Source: an uncultured bacterium
Lineage (GTDB): Bacteria; Lernaellota; Lernaellaia; Lernaellales; Lernaellaceae
Direction of reading: 5' to 3'
Assembly: GCA_964534375.1 (NCBI GenBank)
Contig: CAZHPN010000075.1
Location: forward strand, 1-25,693
Length of the DNA: 25,693 nt
The notes under the pieces were generated by a model, which worked only from the letters and a program-made list of their open reading frames with translations, had not been told where the DNA came from and did no database searches. The translations under genes and the position numbers were made by a program. This document shows, one piece after another, positions 13,181 through 25,693 of the stretch. The first letter of the stretch is position 1, and each line of letters opens with the position of its first letter.

Positions 13181-15211
13181 ATGTCGGAATGTCGGCTCGC
13201 GCTGAAGAAAATGCTCGCGGCCCTCACCGAACCCGGCCGCAGCCGGATGATCGAGAAATGCATTTGGCTTTGTCTGGGCGTGCTCTGGCTGTATTTCAAC
13301 ATCTTTTGTTTTTTCCGCGACAACGGGGGGTGGACGAGCGAAGAGCAGCCGGATTGCGGCATGCTCGCGACCGGATTGCGGGACGGTCTGGCGGCGTCCC
13401 CCTGGTATTACCAGCACTATCACGCGACCGGCACTTTGGTTTTCGGCCTGCTGCTGTGGCCCGTGTACGCCGTCGCCGGCTCGTCGTTCATCTGGATCAA
13501 ACTGCTTAGTTTCCTTTTTGTCGCCGGCGGCATGCTGTTTTGGACGGCGGCCCTGCGGCGGGCCTGGGGCCTGCGAACGGCCGTCATTTTTTTCTTGTGG
13601 CTGCTCTTTCCGCCGCCGTTTCTAGAGTGGCAGCTTCACCAGGCGTGGGCCAATCACGCAGAAAGCCTGTTTTTCTCCGGGTTGCTGCTGTTTATTTTTG
13701 TGCGGCTCTCTGTCCAACGCTTGGGTTTTCGGGAATCTCTGGCGCTCGGCCTGATCGGCGGCGCGGCCTGTTTTTTCTGCCTGGACAACGTGCTCGTCGT
13801 GCTGGCGTTGGCGGCGACGATCGTCTTGCGTTGGCGGCAGCACGGAGCTCGGCGTCTTCTTTGGCCCATGAGTTTCGGTTTTTTCGGCGGGTTCTTTCCG
13901 GCTTTTTTCTCGCGGAACCTGCCGACCAGCGGTCAAGCCCACGCGCCCATCATGGGAAAATCAATGCTGCTCGAATGCGGACGCCGTCTGGCGGACTTGG
14001 TCTTCCATGTTCTTCCTCGATCTGCGGATTACCATGGACCGGCCGGCCGCTGGCTATCGCTGGCCTGGTTTCTATTCGCCGGTTTCGGCGTCATCCTTGC
14101 GCTGCGGCGCGCCGCCGGAGCGGAAGCGCAAGGGTCGGCCGAGCGTTGGCTGGCCCTGGCGCTCTTCTTTCATTTGACGTTTTTCGCCGTGGCGAACGGG
14201 TTCTCGGCGTTGCATGTCGAGCAGGGGTCCACCGACTGGGGGCTCCACTATGCGTGGCGGTATTTGACGATGATCTTCTTGACCATGCTCGCCTTCGTTG
14301 CGTATTTCCTGCGGCGCTGGCGGGGTGCCTGGCCCTGGCTCTTGCTGTTTCCGTTTCTGGCGGCGGGATGCGTCAACCTCACCGATGGCGTCCAATTCCG
14401 CACGGCGGCGCTGGTCCGAAATTTTCATGAAGTCGCGGCGCGGCGGGGCGACGACTATCTCCGTTTTGTCCGCGTTTTTCTGCCGGCGAGTTGGAAAAGC
14501 CAGGACGGCGCCTTCGCTTCCGTGGCCCGCTTGCCGCGCCGGTGGCGCGGCGAAGGCTACGCGGCGCTCGGCCGGCGCTGGCCGGCCGCGCAGGTGCTGG
14601 ACGCTGTCGTCAGCGCTGATTCGCTGTCCGACGAAGTGCGCTGCAATCTGGCGGCCGGCTCGGGCCGCGCTTTTTTGCGCAGCATTCCTGCGGACCCGAG
14701 AGCGTTCGACGCTATCGCCGCGGAGCAAACGGCTCCGCTTCCTCGAATGCGAGCCTTGAACGCGCCGGCCGCCCGCTCGTTTGTCGAAGGATTGGCCGCC
14801 GAGATCCAGTACCACGAGGTCGGCGGTTTTCCGGCGGCGGCCTGGGGCGGCTACCTACGCGGTCTGCTTCCGCAACTGGACGACCGCGAATTCGCGCGGG
14901 CGCTCGCCCGGGGCGTCGGTCTGTGGATCGGCGGCCAATTCGTCGATTTCCCCGACAAAAAAATCACCCCGTATCTCGCGCCGTTCGGGCCGGCGTTTCA
15001 TGTTGAAATCGGCGACGAGGCGTTCGCTGCTTTCGCCGAGGGCGTCGCGGAAGGACGGGCGACCGCGATTGCCAACACGTTGCGGCGCGTCAGCTTTGCT
15101 GGACGCGAGCGCGGGGCGCCGGCGATCCGCGAGGCGTTGTCGCGGCGCGGCATCGAGTTGCGGCCGGCCCCCGGCGAGCCGGACGCATTCGACCTGGAAA
15201 TCCGGCCGTGA
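13181..15211 (+). CDS. Polytopic membrane protein, probable GT-C (ArnT/PMT-like) glycosyltransferase, paralog 1
   Basis: Roughly 10-11 hydrophobic segments, an acidic EE pair in the loop after TM1, GSSFIWIK, FPPPF and NHAES motifs, and a soluble C-terminal domain. The true start may be a later Met (MLAA or MIEK). Confidence 0.6.
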   Translation: MSECRLALKKMLAALTEPGRSRMIEKCIWLCLGVLWLYFNIFCFFRDNGGWTSEEQPDCGMLATGLRDGLAASPWYYQHYHATGTLVFGLLLWPVYAVAGSSFIWIKLLSFLFVAGGMLFWTAALRRAWGLRTAVIFFLWLLFPPPFLEWQLHQAWANHAESLFFSGLLLFIFVRLSVQRLGFRESLALGLIGGAACFFCLDNVLVVLALAATIVLRWRQHGARRLLWPMSFGFFGGFFPAFFSRNLPTSGQAHAPIMGKSMLLECGRRLADLVFHVLPRSADYHGPAGRWLSLAWFLFAGFGVILALRRAAGAEAQGSAERWLALALFFHLTFFAVANGFSALHVEQGSTDWGLHYAWRYLTMIFLTMLAFVAYFLRRWRGAWPWLLLFPFLAAGCVNLTDGVQFRTAALVRNFHEVAARRGDDYLRFVRVFLPASWKSQDGAFASVARLPRRWRGEGYAALGRRWPAAQVLDAVVSADSLSDEVRCNLAAGSGRAFLRSIPADPRAFDAIAAEQTAPLPRMRALNAPAARSFVEGLAAEIQYHEVGGFPAAAWGGYLRGLLPQLDDREFARALARGVGLWIGGQFVDFPDKKITPYLAPFGPAFHVEIGDEAFAAFAEGVAEGRATAIANTLRRVSFAGRERGAPAIREALSRRGIELRPAPGEPDAFDLEIRP

Positions 15212-17244
15212 GCGACAAACGTCATATTTACGCGGCGCATCTCGGCCGACTGGCGGCCGATCCGGACCAGCGCCGGCGGTGGGAAAAATACCTGTGGCTT
15301 TTCCTGGTTGCCGTATGGCTGTTCTTCAACGTCTTCGGCTTTTTCCGCAACATGTGGTGGTGGGCGTTCGACGACCAGGCCGACACGGGCACGCTGGCCA
15401 CCGGCCTGGTGGAAGGCCTGGCCACCTCCCCGTGGTGGTACCAAAACAGCCATGAAACCGGGTCGCTGGTCTTCGGCGTCTTGCTGTATCCGGTCTACGC
15501 GCTGGCCGGTTCGTCGTTTCTCTGGCTCAAAATATTGAGCTTTGCCGCGGTCGCCGGCGGATTTTTCTTCTGGACGGCAGCGCTGCGGCGGGCCTGGGGG
15601 CCGACCGCCGCGGTGATTTTCTTTCTCTGGCTGCTGTTTCCGCCGCCTTTTTTAGAATGGCACGTTCACCAGTGCTGGGCCCAGCACGTCGAAAGCTTCT
15701 TCTTTTCGGGGTTGCTGGTCTTCCTGTTCGTCCGGCTGCACGATTCGCTGCCGCGATTTTGGGAATCGTTGGCGCTGGGCTTGTCGGCCGGGTTCGCGTC
15801 GTTTTTCTGCATGGACAACCTGTTGATCGCGGGGGCGTTGGCGGCCATCGCGGTCTGGCGTTGGCGCCGGCCCGGGCTCGTCCGCTTGCTCTGGCCGACG
15901 GCGCTCGGGTTTTTGGCGACCTTTTCTCCGAGCCGGTTCTCGCCCGTCCTGCCTGTGCCGTCGCACGAGATCTGGTCGTTTTTTCATCCGTCGGCGCTTC
16001 TCGAATGCGGGCGGCGCTGGACCGATCTGGTTCTCCGGGCCCTGCCGAATTGCGCCGGCTACCGTGGCGCCGCCGGCGCGTGGATGTCGGCGGCCTGGCT
16101 GCTGCTCGTCGGGCTCGGCGTCGGCCGGGTCCTCTGGAACGCCCGAACCGCCAAGGCGAAACCCGAGGGGCCCGATTGGCTGGCGGCCGTGCTGCTGCTG
16201 CAATTGTTATTTTTCGCGCTGGCGGTCGGCATGTCCAATCACCAGGTCGAATTCGGCGCCGGATCCGACCTCGATTTCTATTTGTCGCGCCGCTATCTGC
16301 TCATCGTGTTCCCGGCGCTGCTGGCGCTGGCCTCCGCTTTCCTCGCGCGATCGCGCGGCCCGTGGAAATGGCTGTTGATGGCGCCGTTTCTCGTCGCCGG
16401 CTGCGCCAATCTGACATCCGGCGTCGATTTCCGCGGCGGCGCTTTGGCCGCCAAATATCACGGACTGCGAATCCGGCGCGGCGACGATTATCATCGCTTC
16501 GTCTACGCGGCGTTGCCGCTTTCGTGGCGGAACCAACGCGACGCCCTCGCGTCCGTCGCCCGGTTGCCGCGGCGCTGGCGCGACGAAGGGTATGAGAGCG
16601 TCGGTCTGTGGCGGCCGCTCGGCGAGACCCTCGAAGCGGCGGCGAACGATGGCGGCCTGGCGGTCGACGCGCGGCGCGGCTTGGCCGCCGGAGCAGGCCG
16701 CGGCCTGGTGCAGCACGGGCGCGCAGATCGGCGGCTGGAGGGCTATTCCGAGGCCGACGCGGCGGCGATTTTCGCACTTGTGAACGCGTTGGACAAACCG
16801 CTCGCGCTGTCGTTCGCGATGGGGCTCGGCCGGGAAATCCAGGCACGGGAAGCCGTCGGCGCATCGGCGACCGACCTCGCCTCATGGGCCCGTTCCCTGT
16901 TGCCGCAATTGACCGCCGCAGAACTGTTTCGCTGCTTCGTTCGCGGCTACGGCGTGTGGCTGGGCTTGACGATCCATTCGTTCGACGAACCGGCAAAAAT
17001 GCGCAAGATCGCCGTGTACGAACGGGCGTTCGGAGCGGAATTTGACGACGACGGGAAAGCGGCCGTTGCCGACGGCCTCGCGGCCGGGCGCGCGATCAGC
17101 GTGGCGAACGACTTCACGCGCTTCGTCTACGACTACCCGCCAGCCGACTTTCCCGCGTTCCGCGACGCGCTGGAGCGATTAGGCATTCGCCTGCGGCCGA
17201 CGGTTGGCGTCGCCAATGAGTACGTACTGGTAATAGGGCAGTAG
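15208..17244 (+). CDS. Polytopic membrane protein, probable GT-C (ArnT/PMT-like) glycosyltransferase, paralog 2
   Basis: Colinear with paralog 1 (both have FWTAALRRAWG..AVIFFLWLLFPPPFLEW, RRGDDY and SVARLPRRWR). DD pair after TM1. GTGA start/stop overlap at 15208-15211. Confidence 0.6.
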   Translation: MSDKRHIYAAHLGRLAADPDQRRRWEKYLWLFLVAVWLFFNVFGFFRNMWWWAFDDQADTGTLATGLVEGLATSPWWYQNSHETGSLVFGVLLYPVYALAGSSFLWLKILSFAAVAGGFFFWTAALRRAWGPTAAVIFFLWLLFPPPFLEWHVHQCWAQHVESFFFSGLLVFLFVRLHDSLPRFWESLALGLSAGFASFFCMDNLLIAGALAAIAVWRWRRPGLVRLLWPTALGFLATFSPSRFSPVLPVPSHEIWSFFHPSALLECGRRWTDLVLRALPNCAGYRGAAGAWMSAAWLLLVGLGVGRVLWNARTAKAKPEGPDWLAAVLLLQLLFFALAVGMSNHQVEFGAGSDLDFYLSRRYLLIVFPALLALASAFLARSRGPWKWLLMAPFLVAGCANLTSGVDFRGGALAAKYHGLRIRRGDDYHRFVYAALPLSWRNQRDALASVARLPRRWRDEGYESVGLWRPLGETLEAAANDGGLAVDARRGLAAGAGRGLVQHGRADRRLEGYSEADAAAIFALVNALDKPLALSFAMGLGREIQAREAVGASATDLASWARSLLPQLTAAELFRCFVRGYGVWLGLTIHSFDEPAKMRKIAVYERAFGAEFDDDGKAAVADGLAAGRAISVANDFTRFVYDYPPADFPAFRDALERLGIRLRPTVGVANEYVLVIGQ

Positions 17245-17450: not shown

Positions 17451-18890
17451 TCACCAAAACGCCACGCCGCCCGGGCTGTTCAGCGCGACATGGAAATCGA
17501 CCGCGTACGGATCGGCGCCGTGGATCGCCCACACGACGCTATCGCCTTGATCGCAGACGTACGCGTCGCCGGTCGCCGGGTGCACGCCCAGCGCCTGCAC
17601 CCATTCCGCGTTGGCGATGACGATCGGGTTGTCGGCGTCGCGCAGCACGGTGTTGTCCGACGTGTCGAAGACGTACACGTCGCCGGCCAGGCCCTCGCCG
17701 ACGAACGCCAGGCCCGAAGACCCAATGCTGATCGGCCCGGGCGCCGAGCCGAGCGCGAACGAATCGACGACCGTCAGGCCGCTCGGGTCGATTTGCGCGA
17801 CCCCGCCTTTGTTCGAAGCGAAATCGCCGGAACTGACGAGGTACAGTTTCGCGCCGTCGGCGGTGACGGCGAAGTAGGCCGGGTCGAGCGTCGCGATCGG
17901 AATGCGCTGCTTGATTTGCGCCTGCGTCGGGTCGAACACGATCACCTGGCCCGAACCGTAGGTGTCGTTGCTGAGATCGAAGCCGGTGCAGGCGATAAAG
18001 ATCAGGTCGTTCGCCGCGATCACGCCGGCGGGCGCGCAGCCGCTGTCGAGCGTGAAATAGACGACCGGCGTGTTCACCGGATCGGCGAGATCGACTTTGG
18101 CCAGTTGGTTGCTGAGGTTGCCCGTGACATAGGCTTTGCCGTTCAGCGGCGCCGCGGCCCACGGGGCCGCGAGCGTGAGCGGCACATCGACGTACGTGAG
18201 GCCGTCGAGCGTGACCACAATCAATTTTTCTTTGCCGTTCGGGGTCGGCTTGCCGCTGCCCGAGTCGGTGAGCAGAAGTTGGCCGTTGTCGTACTTGATG
18301 TCGTTCAAGAGCGCTCCGATCTGGCCGGCGCCGAGCAGATCGGGCACGGCGGTCTGGCTGCCGCGGTCGATGGCCTCGAGCACGCCGCCCTGGTTGTCGA
18401 ACGTGTAGACGTCCGGCCCGACCAGCACGGTCGCGTCGCCTGTCACCTGGCCGATTGCCGCGTGCACCAGCGTCTTGCCGTTCTTGACGCCTTTCACGAG
18501 GCCGGTTTGGTCGACGGTCGCAATCGTTTGGTCGTCGATCGTCCACGTGAAGCCGCTCGTCACCGGATGGCCGCCGATCGTGCCCGACGCGGCGTACGCG
18601 AACGTCGTCGTCGCCGGGATCATCCGCGCCGCCGGCGTCACCACGATCGAGTCGCTGTCGTCGTCGGCCGGCGAGGCGTCGTCGTCGGGCGACGAATCAT
18701 CGTTGTCGTCATCGTCGGGCGAGGCGTCGTTGTCGTCATCGTCGTCGGCCGGCGAAGCGTCGTCGTCGGCCGGCGGCGCCGCCGAACTGGAGCTGGAACT
18801 CTTGCCGCAGCCGCCGAAGGACAGCGCCGCGGCGGCCAAGACGGCCAGCAGTACGATCGGCAGGGCCCAGCGATCCACACTTCTCTTCAT
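17451..18890 (-). CDS. Lipoprotein with Asp-rich tether, Ig-like (Big_2) domain and YncE-like beta-propeller; candidate BtuG-like cobalamin-binding protein
   Basis: Signal peptide ending FGG-C28, a Ser/Asp linker, an Ig group 2 pattern (TWTIDDQTIATVDQTGLVKGVKNGKTLVHA) and repeated blade motifs (KAYVTG, KLYLVS, LAFVGE, DAYVCD). SD AAAGGAG. Directly downstream of a cobalamin riboswitch. Confidence 0.7.
   Translation of the reverse strand: MKRSVDRWALPIVLLAVLAAAALSFGGCGKSSSSSSAAPPADDDASPADDDDDNDASPDDDDNDDSSPDDDASPADDDSDSIVVTPAARMIPATTTFAYAASGTIGGHPVTSGFTWTIDDQTIATVDQTGLVKGVKNGKTLVHAAIGQVTGDATVLVGPDVYTFDNQGGVLEAIDRGSQTAVPDLLGAGQIGALLNDIKYDNGQLLLTDSGSGKPTPNGKEKLIVVTLDGLTYVDVPLTLAAPWAAAPLNGKAYVTGNLSNQLAKVDLADPVNTPVVYFTLDSGCAPAGVIAANDLIFIACTGFDLSNDTYGSGQVIVFDPTQAQIKQRIPIATLDPAYFAVTADGAKLYLVSSGDFASNKGGVAQIDPSGLTVVDSFALGSAPGPISIGSSGLAFVGEGLAGDVYVFDTSDNTVLRDADNPIVIANAEWVQALGVHPATGDAYVCDQGDSVVWAIHGADPYAVDFHVALNSPGGVAFW
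18651..18770 (-). repeat. Coding low-complexity repeat encoding ADDDASPADDDDDNDASPDDDDNDDSSPDDDASPADDDSD
   Basis: Four degenerate DxSP-ending acidic units following the lipobox and Ser run. Confidence 0.85.
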
Positions 18891-19326: not shown

Positions 19327-20805
19327 TTAGAACAGGAACGAGGCCGACAACATGACGTCGTGCGAGCCCTGCGTGACCTTGCAGTTGTTGTATTCCGCGC
19401 CCCAGTAATCGGCGCTGCCGGCTTTGACCGTGCGGGGCACGCCGAATTGATACGCGGCGTTGACCTCGAACAGGCTGTAGCGGTAGCCCAGGCCGGCGGC
19501 GATGTGATGTTCGATCAGCCCCGGCATGATCAGGCCGACGCGATTCGGGTTGGCCTCGACGTTGCTGGCGTAGTTGTATCCCAGGCGGCCGTAAAAGTCT
19601 TTGATGAACGCGTATTGTGCGCCGACGGCGGCGACAATCTGGTCGTTCCAGTGGGCCGGCAGCGGCGTGATGTGCGGGTCCGACCCGAGGATGTGCGGCC
19701 CGGTCCAGTAGCTGGCGAATTTCATGCTCGCGCGCACCGGCCCCGCCATCGTGTGCGACCACTGAATCCACTTGACGTCGACGCCGAGCAGCAGGCTGTC
19801 GATCGGTTTGTACGAAAAGCCAAGGCCGACGTCTTCCGGCCAGGAAAATTCCATCTTGCTGTTGTAGGTCGTCTGCAGATTTTTCTCGATGCCCCAGTAG
19901 TTCATCTGATTGCGCACCTTGGCCTGGGCATTGGCCGGCGACAGGCCCTGGCTGATATACTGCTGCGTCAGGCTCTGGCCGATGGCGGCGAACTGCGGGG
20001 CCCAGTCGATTTTGTCGTGGCCGTAATACTTCATGTTGACTTGCAGGTCGTACACCAGGCCGATGCGGAACCGCTCGGTCGGCATGATCATCGCGCCGAA
20101 CTTGCCGCCGACGCCGTAGGCGTTCAACTCCCGCATCTGCATGCGGAAGGTCGCTTCGTCGAGCCCGAAGCCGCCCTGCGACAAAGGCATCTTGAACAGC
20201 TTGGCGAACGTCAGGTTGTCGGAGGCGTCGGCGACGCCCTGCATCCAGTCGGGATTCTTGTTGTACGGCAGGTCGGCGTCGAACCGCGACAGCGAAAACG
20301 CCGGCGCCAGAGCCAGCGAGATCATCGGGTGCGGCGCCCAGTCGATCGCGCCCACCAGTTTGGCCGTCTGAAATTGCGAAAAATACCGCGTGTTGTCGCC
20401 GAGCACGGGGTTCTTCAAGCGGAAGTCCGCGACGCCCGTGTCGTTGTTCAGGTACAGGCCGACGCCGCCGGCGACCGAGGCGCCTTGCGGATGGATGCCG
20501 TACGCGATCGCGCCCGAGCCGTAGAGCCGCTGTTGCGCATTCGTGTCGTTCAGATCGTTCTGGAAATGCAAGATCGGCGACAACAGCCCGCCGTTGAGAT
20601 CGACCCGCTGGCCGGGCAGTTGAATCAGACCCGCCGGGTTGGAATCCAGCGCCAAGGCATCCGTCGCGATCGCCAGGTCGACGCCGGCCATGCCGAGGCT
20701 GCGGGCGCCGAGCGCGGTCGCCTCGAGCCCGTCGGCCGGCCACGCGGTCGCGGCCGCGGCGAGAATGGCGGCGAATAAGAAACTAGCGGTGAGAAGGCGC
20801 TTCAT
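19327..20805 (-). CDS. FadL/OmpP1/TodX-family outer-membrane transporter of hydrophobic compounds
   Basis: Sec signal peptide, hatch motif GARSLGMAG...DALALDSNPAG, alternating beta-strand pattern, GRLGYNY and a C-terminal Phe. Confidence 0.88.
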   Translation of the reverse strand: MKRLLTASFLFAAILAAAATAWPADGLEATALGARSLGMAGVDLAIATDALALDSNPAGLIQLPGQRVDLNGGLLSPILHFQNDLNDTNAQQRLYGSGAIAYGIHPQGASVAGGVGLYLNNDTGVADFRLKNPVLGDNTRYFSQFQTAKLVGAIDWAPHPMISLALAPAFSLSRFDADLPYNKNPDWMQGVADASDNLTFAKLFKMPLSQGGFGLDEATFRMQMRELNAYGVGGKFGAMIMPTERFRIGLVYDLQVNMKYYGHDKIDWAPQFAAIGQSLTQQYISQGLSPANAQAKVRNQMNYWGIEKNLQTTYNSKMEFSWPEDVGLGFSYKPIDSLLLGVDVKWIQWSHTMAGPVRASMKFASYWTGPHILGSDPHITPLPAHWNDQIVAAVGAQYAFIKDFYGRLGYNYASNVEANPNRVGLIMPGLIEHHIAAGLGYRYSLFEVNAAYQFGVPRTVKAGSADYWGAEYNNCKVTQGSHDVMLSASFLF

Positions 20806-20875
20806 TACCGGCCCCTTTTTGCGCGGATGCAGTCGCCGCAGGCGCCCGTCGGCCCCAGCCCGCGGGATTCAGTCG

Positions 20876-20904
20876 TGTATAACGGTTTGAGCCCCTGAAT
20901 GCAA
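20876..20904 (-). promoter_or_regulatory. Possible promoter for the FadL-family gene
   Basis: On the minus strand: TTGCAT (20904-20899), 17-bp spacer, TATACA (20881-20876). The -10 lacks the final T. Confidence 0.35.
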
Positions 20905-20989
20905 GTTCAAAATATCCCGCCGGCCAGCGCGAACGCGCGAAACGCGGCGTTGCGCGCCCGCCGCCGTCGCGGCGTCGGGCGTCCCCGCA

Positions 20990-21019
20990 TTGACACCATT
21001 CGGGCGAGGGCAGTAGTGT
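20990..21019 (+). promoter_or_regulatory. Putative sigma70 promoter for the DUF1573 gene
   Basis: TTGACA (20990-20995), 18-bp spacer, TAGTGT (21014-21019). Confidence 0.5.
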
Positions 21020-21052
21020 ATTCCCCGACTTTTTTGGCAACGGAGCAAAATC

Positions 21053-21904
21053 ATGAAACGCCTTTCCTTTTTCCTGTGCGTGTCGATCGCGGCAGCGGTT
21101 TTCGCCGTTGCGGCCTGCGAGAAAAAAGGCCCCATCGCCACGGTGGACGTCGCGGCTTTCGACTTCGGCAACGCCGAACAGAATTCGCAGGTGTCGCACA
21201 CGTACATACTGAAGAACACCGGCGATCAACCGCTCGAAATCGCGCGCACCCGCACGACCTGCGGCTGCACGGTGGCCCAGCCGTCGAAGATGACGCTCGC
21301 CCGCGGCGAAACGTCCAACATCGACGTCACCTTCAGCACCGGGTCGCGCACGGGCAAACAGGAGAAACGGATCACCGTCGAGACCAACGATCCGAAAAAT
21401 CCGAAGACGGTCCTGGTCCTGACCGGCAACGTGATGCAGCGCCTGACCTTCGACCCGGATCGCCTGCACTTCGACAACGCGGAACCGGGTCAGGATTACA
21501 CGCAGACCGTGACGATCGCGAACGCCGGCAAAGAACAGCTCGACGTCAAAGACATCAACATCGGCGAAAAAGATTCGCTGACTTGCAAAGCGGAGTTCAA
21601 TGGCAAGGCCGGCTTGCCGATCAGCTTGAAGGAAGGCGAGAAAGCCACCCTGACCTTTACATTGCGCCTGCCCGCCGACAAACCCTATTTCCACACGCGC
21701 GTCGATTTCGAAACCGCGGCCCAAGGCAAAGACCCGAAGACCGTGACGTACTACGTCGCCGCGCAGTCGAAGAACGCCCAGAACGGCGTCCAGCGGCAGG
21801 CCGCGCCGGGCAGCGGCGGCTTTGCGCCCGCACCGGCCAGCATCATGCAAATGCAAAAAGTGAAAAAACCGGAACCGGCGGCGCCTGCGAAAAAGACCGA
21901 ATAG
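21053..21904 (+). CDS. DUF1573-family lipoprotein with two Ig-like domains
   Basis: Signal peptide with lipobox VAA-C22. FDFG...LKNTGDQPLEI..RTTCGCT...ITVETNDP pattern, then a second similar domain (VTIANAGKEQLDV). Confidence 0.85.
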   Translation: MKRLSFFLCVSIAAAVFAVAACEKKGPIATVDVAAFDFGNAEQNSQVSHTYILKNTGDQPLEIARTRTTCGCTVAQPSKMTLARGETSNIDVTFSTGSRTGKQEKRITVETNDPKNPKTVLVLTGNVMQRLTFDPDRLHFDNAEPGQDYTQTVTIANAGKEQLDVKDINIGEKDSLTCKAEFNGKAGLPISLKEGEKATLTFTLRLPADKPYFHTRVDFETAAQGKDPKTVTYYVAAQSKNAQNGVQRQAAPGSGGFAPAPASIMQMQKVKKPEPAAPAKKTE

Positions 21905-21947
21905 CGACGTGCAATATCCGCGCGAGCGCCGTTTTTCGCGTGCCGGT

Positions 21948-21972
21948 GAGTTGCACGCGCAACTCCTAATTT
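21948..21972 (+). terminator. Short hairpin, possible terminator
   Basis: GAGTTGC-acgc-GCAACTC (21948-21965) followed by CTAATTT. Confidence 0.35.
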
Positions 21973-22007
21973 GTCACTCGTCACTTGTCACTCGTAATTC
22001 GTAATTC
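21971..22007. repeat. Heptamer tandem repeat (T[TC]GT[CA]A[CT]) x5
   Basis: TTGTCAC TCGTCAC TTGTCAC TCGTAAT TCGTAAT. Confidence 0.85.
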
Positions 22008-22156
22008 GGCCGCCGCCCTCGCCGCGGACTGGCGCGAGGCTGCCCCACTGGTTATTGTTGGGTCAGGGCGGCGTCATTCGGCGCAACTCGGATTCACCGG
22101 CGTGACGTCAGGTCCGCCGATGGGCCGCCCGTTTTCCGCGACGGCGGAGGTCGGGC

Positions 22157-24082
22157 ATGCAACCCGCAAAAATGTCGACCGCTCGGTTCGCGCTCCTCAG
22201 TCTCTTTTGCTTTTTCGTCCTCGGCTGCGGCGCGCATAGCCACGAGGCCGGCGCGGGATCCGCGGATGACGACGCCTCGCCGCCGGCCGAAGTCGCGGCG
22301 GCCCTCGATCGCGCCCTGACCTACCTGCGCGACGCGCAGCAACCCGACGGCTATTGGCTGGGCAGCTTCGTCACCGACACGTCATTCACAGCCGATTACA
22401 TATTGCTGACGCATTACCTCGATGCGGTCGACGCGGACCGCCAGGCGAAAGCCGCGGCGTACATCGTTCAGCAGCAGCAGCCTGACGGCGGCTGGAACGC
22501 CTATCCGGGCGGCCCGAGCACGGTGGACATCGCCGCGCTCGACTATCTCGCGCTCAGACTCGCCGGCTACGCGGCCGACGCGCCGGCGATGCAGGCGGCG
22601 CGGGGGTTCATCCTCGCCCACGGCGGCGCCGAAGCGGCGAACGTGCTGATCAAAACCAAGTTCGCCTATTTCGGCCAGGTCCCGTGGGGGTGGATGATTC
22701 CGCTCAACACCGACATCCTATTCTTCGACCAACTGCCCTACGAATTGGGATATTTCCATTCGGTGCTGATTCCCTTCACGCTGATCTACGAGAACTATCG
22801 CGTGGTCCAGCCGCCGGCCGGCCGGGACGTTCCCGAGATCTTCCTTGCCGATCCGTGGGCCGGCGTGCGCGAGTCGCCGCCGTCAAAGGGCTGTTGCGCC
22901 GACAAGGCCATCGCGTGGCTGCTGGAGCATCAGGAAGAGGACGGCAACTGGGCCGGCGTGTTCGTCAACACGATGTTCTCGCTGATCGCGTTGCAATCGA
23001 CCGGCGACCCCGCCTACGCCGCCCGCATTCAGCACGGTCTGCAAGGCGTCGAAAATTTCCAGAACGTCGCCGCCGAGACGATCAACCAGCAATTCAGCCA
23101 ACCGCCGGTGATGGATACGGCCTATATCCTGCGCCTGCTGCTCGCCACCGGCGCGCCGTCGACCGACCCCTCCGTGCTGCGGGCGACGGATTGGCTGGTC
23201 GGGAAACAATCGGACATCTACGGCGATTGGTCGCAGCTCAATCCCACGGGCCAGCCGGGCGGCTGGAGCTTCGAATTGTACAACCGCTATTTCCCCGACG
23301 TCGATTGCACGGCGATGACGCTCGACGCGTTCGCCGCGCTCGACGCGCCGCACCAGGCGGCGATCCGCTCGACGATGCAGAAGGGCCTCAGGTGGATGCT
23401 CTCGATGCAGGACCGCGACGGCGGCTGGCCGGCGTGGGACAAGAACGCCATCGACCCGCACAAGATTTTCCCGTCGCTGCGCGACGCCCTGTGGCTGCCG
23501 GCCGACTTCAGCAACGCCGACATCACCTCGCGGGTCCTGCTGGCGCTGGCCGATTTGGGAGTTGCCGGCGCGTCCGCCGATTCGACCGCGTGGCGGCAGG
23601 GCCTCGAGTTTCTCAAGAACCAACAAGAGGCGCCGGGTTATTGGTACGGCCGCTGGGGCGTCAACTACACCTACGGCACGGGGCAGGCGCTGCAGGCGCT
23701 GATCGCGGCCGGCGAGCCGCCGGGGGCGCCGTATCTGCAGCGCGCCGTTGACTGGCTGCGCCGCGTGCAGAACGCCGACGGCGGCTGGGGCGAAGACCCG
23801 GCGTCGTATCTCAACCCGGCCTACATCGGCGTTGGCCCGAGCACGGTGTTTCAGACGGCGTACGTGCTGATCGGTCTGCTGGCGGCGGGCGAAGCGCCGA
23901 GCGCCGAAGTCAAAACCGGTGTGCAGTGGCTGCTCGCCGCGCAGCAAGCCGACGGCTCATGGCACGACGAGAGATTTCTCGGCTGCAATCTGCCCGGCTA
24001 TTGGTACTCGCGTTACGATCTGCTCTCGACCTACAAATCGGCGTACGCGCTGCTGCTTTATCAGCAGGCGACCAGGCACTGA
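22157..24082 (+). CDS. Squalene-hopene-cyclase-family (class II triterpene) cyclase with an N-terminal lipoprotein signal
   Basis: Seven QW-type repeats (QQPDGYW, QQPDGGW, QEEDGNW, QDRDGGW, QEAPGYW, QNADGGW, QQADGSW), PGGWSFE, FPDVDCTA, WYGRWGVNYTYGT and STVFQTA. SD GGAGG. N-terminus MQPAKMSTARFALLSLFCFFVLG-C24. Confidence 0.92.
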   Translation: MQPAKMSTARFALLSLFCFFVLGCGAHSHEAGAGSADDDASPPAEVAAALDRALTYLRDAQQPDGYWLGSFVTDTSFTADYILLTHYLDAVDADRQAKAAAYIVQQQQPDGGWNAYPGGPSTVDIAALDYLALRLAGYAADAPAMQAARGFILAHGGAEAANVLIKTKFAYFGQVPWGWMIPLNTDILFFDQLPYELGYFHSVLIPFTLIYENYRVVQPPAGRDVPEIFLADPWAGVRESPPSKGCCADKAIAWLLEHQEEDGNWAGVFVNTMFSLIALQSTGDPAYAARIQHGLQGVENFQNVAAETINQQFSQPPVMDTAYILRLLLATGAPSTDPSVLRATDWLVGKQSDIYGDWSQLNPTGQPGGWSFELYNRYFPDVDCTAMTLDAFAALDAPHQAAIRSTMQKGLRWMLSMQDRDGGWPAWDKNAIDPHKIFPSLRDALWLPADFSNADITSRVLLALADLGVAGASADSTAWRQGLEFLKNQQEAPGYWYGRWGVNYTYGTGQALQALIAAGEPPGAPYLQRAVDWLRRVQNADGGWGEDPASYLNPAYIGVGPSTVFQTAYVLIGLLAAGEAPSAEVKTGVQWLLAAQQADGSWHDERFLGCNLPGYWYSRYDLLSTYKSAYALLLYQQATRH

Positions 24083-24107
24083 GCGACGAGACGCAGGCCG
24101 AAGCCGA

Positions 24108-25693
24108 TTCAACCGAAGTTCCCGACCAAGAAAGTTATAACTAGCTGATTATTCAGGGAAAGTGCAGAAATCGGCGTTCCCGTTACTGGCTACACCTGCA
24201 GCAATTCGTAGGCGCGTTGCTGCAAAGTTGTCGGTTCGGTCAACTGTTCGAAGGTCGGCGCATCGGACGCGGTCTTGATCCGGCAGCGATTGCGGCACTG
24301 GGTGGCCAGCACGTTCAGCAACGTGTGGAAGCTGTGAACGGGCAGGCCGTCAGGCGTGCGCTTGGTCCATTTTTTTCGCTGGACGGAGGCCGATCCTTCG
24401 GCGGGCGCGACGGGATCGCGGACGCCCCGCAGTTCCGGCAATTCCTCGTCTTCGAACAGCAGCGGGGCCCAGGCGCGGCGCATGTGCCATTCGACGTAGC
24501 AGGCCAGCATGCACAGAAAGATGTGCGCCGTCACGCGATTCGCTTCCCGATGGAAGATCGGCCGCACGAGCAGGTCCATTCCCTTGAAACAACGGAAAGC
24601 GCGCTCGGCATGAGCCAAGCCCTTGTAGCCGCGCACCGCGTCTTCGGCCGACAACCGCGCGGCGGGCTCGCTGGTGCGAATCACGTAGATGCCGTCGAGC
24701 TGCGCCTCCGAGGCGATGGACTTTTCGTCGCGGGCATAAGTGAACGAGCCGTCGCCGTACTCCACCTGAAAGTGTTTCGCCATCTGGTGGCGGTGGATGA
24801 CGTGACCGACCTTCTCGGCCAGTTGCTCGCACGTCAACGGCGTCTTCGTGCGCCGCGCCGCCGCGGCGGCAATCTGGGCCAGGTCCTTTTCCGTGGCGGC
24901 CAGCAGGGCCTCGCGCTTGCGCCGCCGCTCCTCGGCCAGCAACGGATTGAAGCAGGCGACCAGCCGTTCGCCGGGATAATCCGGCGCGGCGATCTCGGCC
25001 AGGTTCCGCTGATCGAACAGCGACAGTTGCAATGCCCCACCGTCCACCAAACCGCGGATCGCCGAACTGCGCAAGGCCGCGATCCAACCCAAGCCCGGAT
25101 GCTCCTGCAAGTTGTCGATCTGCGTTCGCGTCAGCATGCCGCGGTCGCCGACCAACACCACGCGCTGCAGCGCGAAGCGCTCCCGCAGCTTGGCGACCTG
25201 GTCCGGCACGGTCGTCGGATCGCCGGTGTTGCCCGGGTAGACCTCCAGGCCGATCGGCCGGCCCTCGTGGTCGGTCAAGAGGCCGTAGACGATGATCGGC
25301 AGGTCGCGCTTGCCGTCGCGGTTGTGGCCGAATTTCGCCAACGGGCAATGGCGGCCCTCGTAGTAGCTGCTGCTCACGTCATAGAGCGCGGCGCCGCCTT
25401 CGACCAAATGCCGCGCCGCCAGTTTTTTCTCGATCGCCGCTTGCCGCGCCAGCAGCCAGTCCATGGCCGCATACAATTCGTCTTCATCGGCGTCGGCCAC
25501 GCCGAGTTCGTCGGCCAAGGTCGAGGTCTCCCACTGCCGCGCCGTCGCCAGCTTCGAACCCGGTTGCAAGAGCCGCTCGGCGATCAGCGCCACCGCCAGG
25601 TCGCGCTCGCGGCTGCGCTTCGCCGCCAGCAGCGCGTCCAGCCCCAGGCGTTTGATCGTGCCCAGCACCGCCCGCACGTGGCCGTGCGGCGTC
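24108..25693 (-). mobile_element. IS1634-family insertion sequence, partial (runs off the window)
   Basis: Transposase plus an AT-rich 3' flank (24125-24170). The boundary near AACCGAAGTTCCC (24111-24123) is a guess because the other end is not in the window. Confidence 0.75.
24190..25693 (-). CDS. IS1634-family DDE transposase, 5'-truncated by the window edge
   Basis: LYDVSSSYYEG, FGHNRDGKRDLP, YPGNTGDPTT, VGDRGM, LDGIYVIRTS, YKGLAHAERAFR, RPIFH and HIFLCMLACYVEWH. The frame stays open to the edge (..TPHGHVRAVLG). Confidence 0.92.
   Translation of the reverse strand, partial: TPHGHVRAVLGTIKRLGLDALLAAKRSRERDLAVALIAERLLQPGSKLATARQWETSTLADELGVADADEDELYAAMDWLLARQAAIEKKLAARHLVEGGAALYDVSSSYYEGRHCPLAKFGHNRDGKRDLPIIVYGLLTDHEGRPIGLEVYPGNTGDPTTVPDQVAKLRERFALQRVVLVGDRGMLTRTQIDNLQEHPGLGWIAALRSSAIRGLVDGGALQLSLFDQRNLAEIAAPDYPGERLVACFNPLLAEERRRKREALLAATEKDLAQIAAAAARRTKTPLTCEQLAEKVGHVIHRHQMAKHFQVEYGDGSFTYARDEKSIASEAQLDGIYVIRTSEPAARLSAEDAVRGYKGLAHAERAFRCFKGMDLLVRPIFHREANRVTAHIFLCMLACYVEWHMRRAWAPLLFEDEELPELRGVRDPVAPAEGSASVQRKKWTKRTPDGLPVHSFHTLLNVLATQCRNRCRIKTASDAPTFEQLTEPTTLQQRAYELLQV

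Follow-up and report, generated by a model that had tools for sequence, protein, structure and literature searches.

The squalene-hopene cyclases (SHCs) characterized so far are described, in those parts of PMC9586974 and PMC1934363 that deal with their topology, as monotopic enzymes attached to the cytoplasmic membrane and equipped with a lipophilic access channel. The passages of PMC6127371 on engineered variants indicate that the D377C form of the Alicyclobacillus acidocaldarius enzyme (AaSHC) has strongly reduced activity and yields the monocyclic 3-deoxyachilleol instead of hopene, and the corresponding passages of PMC12414744 that squalene requires a higher acidity of the SHC site. The latter source also outlines an 'SHC-like' clade (Santana-Molina 2020; McShea 2025) of divergent two-domain relatives in PVC, FCB, Spirochaetota and Acidobacteriota. 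The window considered here, by which we mean the entire 25,693-nucleotide stretch analyzed (contig CAZHPN010000075.1 of assembly GCA_964534375.1, from a wetland bacterium), contains at 22157..24082 on the forward strand an open reading frame (ORF) for a 641-residue SHC-family cyclase homolog, assigned with Pfam, NCBIfam, AlphaFold2 (AF2) and Foldseek, that is predicted to be exported as a lipoprotein. A full-text search of the literature recovered no paper that ties a cyclase of the SHC or oxidosqualene cyclase (OSC) family to a signal peptide, a lipobox or the periplasm. The terms 'signal peptide', 'periplasm' and 'lipoprotein' do not occur in the main texts of PMC12414744 and PMC7306690, whose supplements lie outside this check and may bear on the clade, and the relevant part of a hopanoid-transport preprint discusses signal peptides for HpnL, HpnM, HpnS and HpnT only. 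The initial annotation of this ORF had held that characterized SHCs and OSCs are signal-less monotopic proteins acting from the cytoplasmic side of the membrane and, prior to any search, knew of no exported example; the sources above and the lack of a signal in 106 canonical matches agree with the former statement, and our literature search likewise turned up no precedent.

Examination of the N-terminus of the cyclase (MQPAKMSTARFALLSLFCFFVLGC) reveals the organization of a lipoprotein signal peptide (residues 1-24; 22157..22228, + strand), with an n-region bearing two basic residues (K5 and R10), a 13-residue uncharged h-region (F11-G23) and the lipobox V21-L22-G23-C24. This assignment draws on conservation within the clade described below and on a PROSITE-style lipobox rule (Cys at 15-35, uncharged h-region, basic n-region), which is passed at C24 by the window cyclase and by none of the 106 canonical SHC matches among those listed. 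A Tat signal was considered and rejected, as there is no twin-arginine. Immediately downstream of the lipobox lies an acidic disordered tether spanning approximately residues 25-45 (GAHSHEAGAGSADDDASPPAE...; 22229..22291, + strand; predicted local distance difference test score, pLDDT, below 50 to residue 38). Its sequence after C24 (…GSADDDASPPAE…) resembles the tether of a neighboring Big_2 lipoprotein (…PPADDDASPADDDD…), both being of a DDDASP type, and the tethers of the clade homologs are similarly rich in D/E. The residue at position +2 differs among clade members (G, A, E, D, K, V) and hence gives no indication of sorting to one membrane or the other.

The start of the ORF is well constrained. 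A Shine-Dalgarno-like GGAGG can be read at 22146..22150 (+ strand), 6 nt 5' of the ATG at 22157, and between the in-frame stop at 22103 and this ATG there are no start codons. Ahead of the fold, ATG, GTG or TTG codons occur only at codons 1 and 6 (both ATG), and the next start-type codon, TTG at codon 83, lies within the fold; therefore no alternative start drops the signal yet retains the enzyme. A frameshift or fusion artefact was likewise rejected, because the identical 641-residue product is encoded on 3 contigs, the locus on contig L039 is 100% identical and the homologs are collinear. The genome furthermore encodes the lipoprotein processing enzymes, with 3 matches to Lgt and 2 to LspA, all above their cut-offs. 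As an aside, one contig of this genome (G000 contig C111; L034-L036) has two LspA genes and one Lgt gene adjoining each other, with two more Lgt genes elsewhere, making for an unusually rich set. The initial annotation's account of this region, comprising the ribosome-binding site, the basic n-region, the h-region, the VLG-C24 lipobox, the short tether and the lack of a methionine between the signal and the first cyclase helix (the codon 6 ATG falls inside the signal itself), is reproduced throughout, and codon reading revealed no downstream start, which it had named as a potential refutation, that keeps the fold while losing the signal. On this evidence we consider it very likely that the protein is exported and lipidated.

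Sequence searches place the window cyclase in a small and distinctive clade. A protein search over 5.8 billion clustered proteins recovered 598 matches at E <= 1e-10 among 8000 scored candidates, and the best 120 of these, on which the following counts are based, break sharply in score: P0002-P0014 attain 673-1027 bits with 50-71% identity, whereas the next match is at 428 bits and 38%. P0013 is a fragment, and all N-terminally complete members of this top group start with a signal; among the 106 lower matches in the best 120 of 598, none shows a 10-residue Kyte-Doolittle window of at least 2.28 starting before residue 41. An exhaustive search with a hidden Markov model (HMM), covering 1.84 billion 50%-identity representatives, indicates that the clade is small: it adds three fragments besides P0121 and P0122, and the pair P0123/P0124 ranks next. 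The 15 core members form a single group, with an SH-aLRT support of 100, in an unrooted maximum-likelihood tree built from 81 sequences, all of them matches from these searches; overall identity among clade members is 46-72%. N-terminal signals are seen in all 15: nine have a strict lipobox, two (P0002 and P0006) a near-lipobox and three (P0011, P0014 and P0122) a signal of the signal-peptidase-I type, with the remaining member (P0012) having an ambiguous start, in which an h-region and Cys lie behind a long, probably mis-called extension. A CarboxypepD_reg domain is inserted between signal and cyclase in P0010 (40.6 bits) and P0011 (40.0 bits; cut-off 32.3), and the corresponding score of P0014 (25.2) falls below that cut-off. 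Thus, the initial annotation's suggestion that homologs be checked for retention of the signal comes out in its favor. A metagenome scan yielded 37 loci, three of which belong to the clade, namely L039, which is identical, and the short L040 and L041. The distribution of the cyclase within the class is patchy: in the window's own family none of the other seven genomes has it, and in a second family four of seven do.

Structurally, the window cyclase is a clear member of the superfamily. It matches the Pfam models SQHop_cyclase_N (residues 51-233; 22307..22855, + strand; E 3.9e-59, over model positions 2-189 of 291 only) and SQHop_cyclase_C (residues 317-636; 23105..24064, + strand; E 7.9e-99), and contains eight QW-like motifs. 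An AF2 model built with 77 sequences has a pLDDT of 91.8, with residues 1-7 and 16-38 below 50 and the fold beginning at about residue 43. The best Foldseek match of this model is AaSHC (2sqc; template modeling score, TM, 0.85/0.87; 33-34% identity), and human OSC (1w6k) is recovered at TM 0.81 with 22% identity. A search of the ESM Atlas with the window cyclase returned ordinary SHC clusters only, and weak similarity to thioester (TED) domains is seen both with Pfam and with Foldseek. Of the NCBIfam models, the hopene cyclase equivalog TIGR01507 is passed narrowly (463.1 versus a cut-off of 431.1 bits) and the subfamily model TIGR01787 more comfortably (405.6 versus 322.7), whereas the OSC model TIGR03463 is failed by a wide margin (198.7 versus 851 bits).

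Alignment to 1gsz_A locates the catalytic motif at D381-V-D383-C384 (23297..23308, + strand), equivalent to D374-V-D376-D377 of AaSHC, with the fourth aspartate replaced by a cysteine. Among the best 120 of the 598 matches, an acid motif of the form P-D-x-D-C-[TA] is seen in 14/14 clade matches and DxDD in the other 106/106; of the HMM-derived representatives, P0121 has Val and P0122 Thr at the fourth position, such that DxDD is absent from all 15 core members. The remainder of the catalytic apparatus is retained: AaSHC D374, D376, F365, W489, Y495 and Y609 are all present in the window cyclase, and the corresponding D381, D383, F372, W500, Y506 and Y620 are invariant in 77/77 aligned sequences (13 of the clade and 64 canonical). 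We take D376 of AaSHC to be the central acid and Y495, W489, F365 and Y609 to be its partners. We defined a change as clade-specific if it is common to at least 12 of the 13 clade rows and set against a residue held by at least 58 of the 64 canonical rows, and five positions reach this threshold (clade/canonical): C384/D, M319/W, Y199/W, W427/F and L441/F. In terms of AaSHC these are, besides the acid motif, W312 replaced by M319 (M in 13/13 clade rows versus W in 64/64 canonical ones), W169 by Y199 (F200 in the phmmer alignment), Y420, which is F in most SHCs, by W427, and F434 of the IPF(A/C)D gate by L441 (S440 in the phmmer alignment). Two additional replacements in the window cyclase, likewise of residues that vary little or not at all among canonical SHCs, are W558 by Y569 and I261 by V268. 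Read from these alignments, the active site is conserved but altered around an intact general acid rather than decaying.

A second feature of the clade is a deletion between the two Pfam domains, at residues 230-253 (22844..22915, + strand; seen in the alignment and the models), where the clade instead displays a conserved DPW.G....PP.KGCC. The segment between F229 and W254 measures 24 residues in 13/13 clade rows versus a median of 52 in the 64 canonical rows, amounting to a 28-residue deletion, and AaSHC residues 203-237 fall opposite residues 233-244 of the window cyclase in the alignment. The stretch missing from the clade corresponds to the conserved W-x-x-F-F-x-L-L-D-x-L-L-K. In the AF2 model of the canonical homolog P0015 (pLDDT 93.5) the deletion site is occupied by a helix at 217-234 (WNTFFVLLDKLLKISERY), whereas the model of the window cyclase has no helix within residues 214-247. 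The segment is also more amphipathic in canonical sequences, where its maximal hydrophobic moment reaches a median of 0.61 (n=63) versus at most 0.45 in the clade. The replacing stretch also displays, in eight of the 13 aligned clade members, a vicinal Cys-Cys following an invariant Gly (G-C-C; residues 245-247, 22889-22897). The initial annotation described a complete two-domain class II triterpene cyclase, which holds in so far as both domains are present in full, but the protein is not a standard SHC in view of the DxDC motif, the deleted helix and the replacement of W312, W169 and the gate motif. Since several defining features of the hopene cyclase family are unmet, annotation as a squalene-hopene cyclase is unsuitable, notwithstanding the TIGR01507 pass.

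The gene content of the host bears on the question of substrate. In the window's genome, which is 94% complete, the window cyclase is the sole SHC-family gene. No member of the squalene/phytoene synthase family (SQS_PSY, PF00494; Sqs, HpnC/D, CrtB/M) was found in this genome, in the four other cyclase-carrying genomes of the class or anywhere else among the class's 17 genomes, of which 14 are at least 90% complete; the same search recovered the family in G019, which has a canonical-type SHC, and in 8 of 14 well-known control genomes. Similarly, no squalene epoxidase was found in the window's genome, the YtpB/DUF2600 family (PF10776) had no match there although it was recovered from the Bacillus subtilis control, and none of its radical-SAM proteins reaches the HpnH cut-off. 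The failure to find a squalene/phytoene synthase gene in genome and class makes the formation of polycyclic triterpenoids from the organism's own squalene unlikely; together with the negative results for squalene epoxidase and YtpB, it suggests that the cyclase most likely acts on something other than squalene made by the cell itself. Hence, of the initial annotation's proposal that polycyclic terpenoids are formed outside the cytoplasm, the version relying on endogenous squalene is improbable, whereas the extracytoplasmic location gains support from the clade-wide signals, the lack of a downstream start and the presence of Lgt and LspA, with export itself remaining a prediction.

In light of the above observations, we propose that the window protein is more probably than otherwise a Sec/SPII lipoprotein and class II isoprenoid cyclase of the periplasm or outer membrane, whose substrate would not be self-made squalene and whose product would probably not be hopene; that it has a real cyclase activity is likely. 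The precursor would be exported by Sec, after which Lgt would lipidate Cys24 and LspA would cleave the signal, leaving the tether of about 20 acidic, disordered residues to hold the two-domain alpha/alpha-toroid at the periplasmic face of either the inner or the outer membrane. There D383, the counterpart of AaSHC D376, would serve as the general acid together with D381, Y506, W500, F372 and Y620, protonating an isoprenoid and thereby setting off cation cyclization. As class II cyclization needs only a protonating aspartate and a shaped pocket, with no cofactor or ATP, it is feasible in the periplasm. The N-terminal lipid anchor could plausibly stand in for the amphipathic helix as the means of membrane attachment. 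The substrate might be an isoprenoid scavenged from outside, such as squalene, oxidosqualene or a similar compound, with FadL-type porins as a potential entry route, or alternatively a regular polyprenoid of the cell's own that is accessible from the periplasm. Plain squalene-to-hopene chemistry is disfavored because the acid motif is weakened, as suggested by the D377C data and the acidity that squalene needs, and because Trp312 and Trp169 are replaced. A bolder extension, which we regard as a doubtful though not negligible prospect, is that a bacterium in which no squalene synthase gene was found takes up isoprenoids of other organisms (squalene, oxidosqualene or related chains) through FadL-type channels and cyclizes them in its periplasm, thereby furnishing its outer membrane with rigid polycyclic lipids.

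Several observations weigh against this proposal. In the sister pair, P0123 has no signal and a DLDC motif while P0124 has a lipobox and DVDD, indicating that export and the Asp-to-Cys change are separable; the helix segment of both is of intermediate length (38-40 residues), and the two may be evolutionary intermediates. The canonical helix presumably belongs to the non-polar plateau with which SHC dips into the membrane, next to the substrate channel, and with this amphipathic helix gone the entry of a very hydrophobic substrate into the channel is hard to explain. No conserved gene partners were found among the clade loci, such that no pathway partner backs any particular substrate. Finally, SQS_PSY is missing class-wide and not just from the five cyclase carriers, so that within the class its absence shows no correlation with possession of the cyclase, and all genomes of the class are metagenome-assembled genomes (MAGs) of 77-99% completeness.

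The alternative that fares best is in effect a sub-case of the proposal, in which the protein would be an epoxide-dependent, OSC-like cyclase acting on environmental oxidosqualene or epoxy-isoprenoids. The acid motif of OSCs is DCTA, which the Asp-Cys pair of the window cyclase resembles, and OSCs carry Val at the position of D381. The retention of D381 thus argues against an OSC-like enzyme, as do the score far below the TIGR03463 cut-off, the occurrence of Val in one clade member and of Thr in another instead of Cys, and the lack of a conserved neighborhood. The failure to find a squalene epoxidase in the genome implies that any epoxide would be exogenous, and a FadL-type importer is indeed encoded nearby. 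Taking these points together, we consider this version of events rather unlikely.

According to a different explanation the protein would be an ordinary hopene-forming SHC provided with a lipoprotein anchor, with squalene arising by an unrecognized route or through genes missed in the MAGs and hopanoids being made at the periplasmic face. This could draw on the equivalog pass, on the conservation of the fold and the central acid, and on the fact that every genome concerned is an incomplete MAG; however, the margin of the pass is small, DxDD is lost in the entire core clade along with W312, W169 and the F434 gate, and no HpnH is above cut-off. Moreover, according to the portion of PMC6127371 mentioned above, AaSHC D377C no longer yields hopene, and for SQS_PSY to have dropped out of the assembly every time, in 17 genomes of which 14 are at least 90% complete, would be an unlikely coincidence. 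We accordingly regard an anchored hopene synthesizer as improbable. A non-catalytic function, in which an exported alpha/alpha-toroid lipoprotein that has lost cyclase chemistry binds or carries isoprenoids or other lipids, would account for the loss of the fourth Asp and two active-site Trp residues, the drift of the fourth motif position between C, V and T, the weak TED-domain similarity and the failure to find a substrate pathway in the genome. Nevertheless, D383, D381, F372, W500, Y506 and Y620 are invariant in 13/13 clade and 64/64 canonical sequences, and at an identity of 46-72% the clade has kept both these positions and its own specific replacements, which suggests a selected, altered site; a mere carrier is therefore to be given little credence. 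The idea of an uncleaved N-terminal membrane anchor or a mis-called start, with the enzyme facing the cytoplasm and the anchor compensating for the lost helix, would supply the other membrane attachment that the clade needs, but it is very hard to sustain given that K5 and R10 precede the h-region and predict an outward C-terminal side, that the h-region has 13 residues only and ends in the lipobox Cys, that three members have AxA-type sites followed by a CarboxypepD_reg-like domain (two above the cut-off and P0014 below), that there is no downstream start and that the acidic tether matches that of the neighboring Big_2 lipoprotein.

The genes around the cyclase are compatible with a cell-envelope setting without pointing to a specific pathway. 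In order, the window has the Big_2-domain lipoprotein with its long poly-Asp/Ser-Pro tether (17451-18890, - strand; N-terminus …LSFGGC…), an outer-membrane transporter for hydrophobic compounds that belongs to the FadL/TodX family and carries a signal of the signal-peptidase-I type (19327..20805, - strand; Pfam Toluene_X, 59.9 bits versus a cut-off of 29.7), a lipoprotein with a DUF1573/HYDIN-like Ig domain (21053..21904, + strand; Pfam PF07610, 99 bits; N-terminus ending ...FAVAAC), the cyclase on the + strand and, directly 3' of it, a DDE transposase gene that runs off the contig end (24190..25692, - strand; Pfam DDE_Tnp_1, 30.2 bits). The DUF1573 and cyclase genes are separated by a terminator-like hairpin (21948..21965, + strand), which is a consensus match only, there being seven such sites versus 4.6 expected from shuffles; just after it, the intergenic region 5' of the cyclase gene contains short direct repeats (GTCACTCGTCACTTGTCACTCGTAATTCGTAATTCG) at 21960-22005. 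Farther upstream are tandem paralogous genes for polytopic membrane proteins of 676 and 678 residues (13181-15211 and 15208-17244, + strand), which overlap in stop and start and have no Pfam match. A second assembly of the locus (L039) stops 187 nt past the cyclase gene, as expected if a repeated insertion sequence (IS) element breaks assemblies there. Recent transfer of the cyclase gene was considered in view of the adjacent transposase and rejected, as composition gives no sign of it (GC content 0.66-0.68 versus 0.60-0.73 in the window).

Comparison across the clade loci shows that this arrangement is not shared. The three upstream neighbors (the FadL-like gene of the window, L005:6159-7754 and L004:5801-7117) have no mutual similarity in BLASTP. 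In two genomes (G010 and G011) the cyclase homolog lies between gap-pgk-tpi and typA. In another (G015) it is followed directly on its 3' side by genes for an MlaE-MlaE-MlaF-MlaD/Mce-type lipid ABC transporter (L005 10332-13603, + strand), and a poly-Asp lipoprotein without a family match is encoded upstream in the same locus; the clade contig of G009 is 3.7 kb only. A promoter scan over 20700-24300 returned a single promoter-like site, on the opposite strand inside the cyclase gene, versus 0.7 expected. Pieces identical to the cyclase gene occur in contigs of four metatranscriptome runs, and one of these, equivalent to 22072-22378, spans the 5' leader, the Shine-Dalgarno-like element, the signal peptide and the first helix. 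They constitute a weak hint of expression including the signal-coding region, with carry-over of DNA being possible. Positions 22394-22877, 21910-22030 and 20700-20941 are uncovered by contigs in all four runs, though contigs of this kind cannot show absence. One X6 contig has a 96-nt diverged stretch (23668-23765), probably from a related strain.

Predicted signals are seen elsewhere in the family as well. A crude hydrophobicity screen flags 17 of the top 150 representatives (approximately 1 in 10) as having a hydrophobic N-terminus, and although at least three of these (P0167, P0243 and P0259) are doubtful by eye, their placement on the unrooted tree requires no fewer than five independent origins along branches with good support. 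In one separate signal-bearing lineage (P0231, P0241, P0242 and P0220) the helix segment is missing (13-19 residues) and DxDD is kept; its member P0220 (1176 aa) combines a DxDD-containing SHC-family didomain with a periplasmic domain of the MacB type and an FtsX permease in a single fusion protein. This fits with export and helix loss going together, the link being partial in that other signal-bearing lineages keep the long segment. Export within the SHC family may therefore be more widespread than has been noticed, and, should the bolder extension above hold, these several independent lineages would amount to a widespread compartment for terpenoid chemistry that has escaped attention. The window cyclase would then be the first case of extracytoplasmic terpenoid cyclization, and hopanoid- or sterol-like biomarkers could arise in organisms without the upstream pathway. 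The prevailing assumption for hopanoids and sterols is that ring formation takes place at the cytoplasmic membrane and that the product is then exported. The clade contradicts this view through its export and lipid-anchor signals, its lost helix, its altered acid motif and the failure to find a squalene synthase in its genomes, which jointly suggest ring formation in the cell envelope from a substrate that is scavenged or of a novel type. In biomarker studies, hopanoid producers are predicted from the presence of an 'shc' gene, and the clade passes the NCBI model while probably making no hopene from squalene of its own. For uncultured phyla, the findings further bear on how lipids are scavenged and on the biology of the outer membrane. 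In biocatalysis, the use of SHCs is said in the pertinent part of PMC9586974 to be hampered by their monotopic membrane nature and by the outer membrane barring the substrate; a naturally periplasmic, helix-less relative might serve as a soluble scaffold.

In comparison with known systems, the window cyclase differs from the sporulenol/SqhC pathway in that the partner YtpB (DUF2600) was not found in its genome, and its host differs from SHC hosts in general in that no squalene synthase was found there. With the OSCs (TIGR03463; 1w6k) it shares the superfamily fold and an acid motif that contains an Asp-Cys pair; unlike them it falls far below the family cut-off, has 22% identity to the human enzyme and resides in a host in which squalene epoxidase was not found, and to our knowledge no OSC has a signal peptide. 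The other signal-bearing representatives (P0231/P0241/P0242, P0236/P0253/P0256, P0202 and others) may belong to the 'SHC-like' clade, and the window's clade is distinguished from them by scoring nearer the crown SHCs. The engineered variants AaSHC D377C and Bacillus megaterium TC D373C have the very Asp-to-Cys change that is natural in the clade; those, though, are cytoplasmic-face enzymes with otherwise wild-type pockets and, according to the relevant portion of PMC6127371, give monocyclic 3-deoxyachilleol from squalene at a low rate. Since the clade has further pocket changes, its product cannot be read from these variants. The closest described system is AaSHC (2sqc/1gsz), with which the window cyclase has in common the two-domain alpha/alpha-toroid, the eight QW motifs, the general acid with its partners and the equivalog score. 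It is set apart from AaSHC by its DxDC motif, the 28-residue deletion, the replacement of W312 by M, of W169 by Y/F and of Y420 by W, the loss of the F434 gate and, above all in the present context, by a predicted Sec/SPII signal and an acidic tether, both of which AaSHC lacks.

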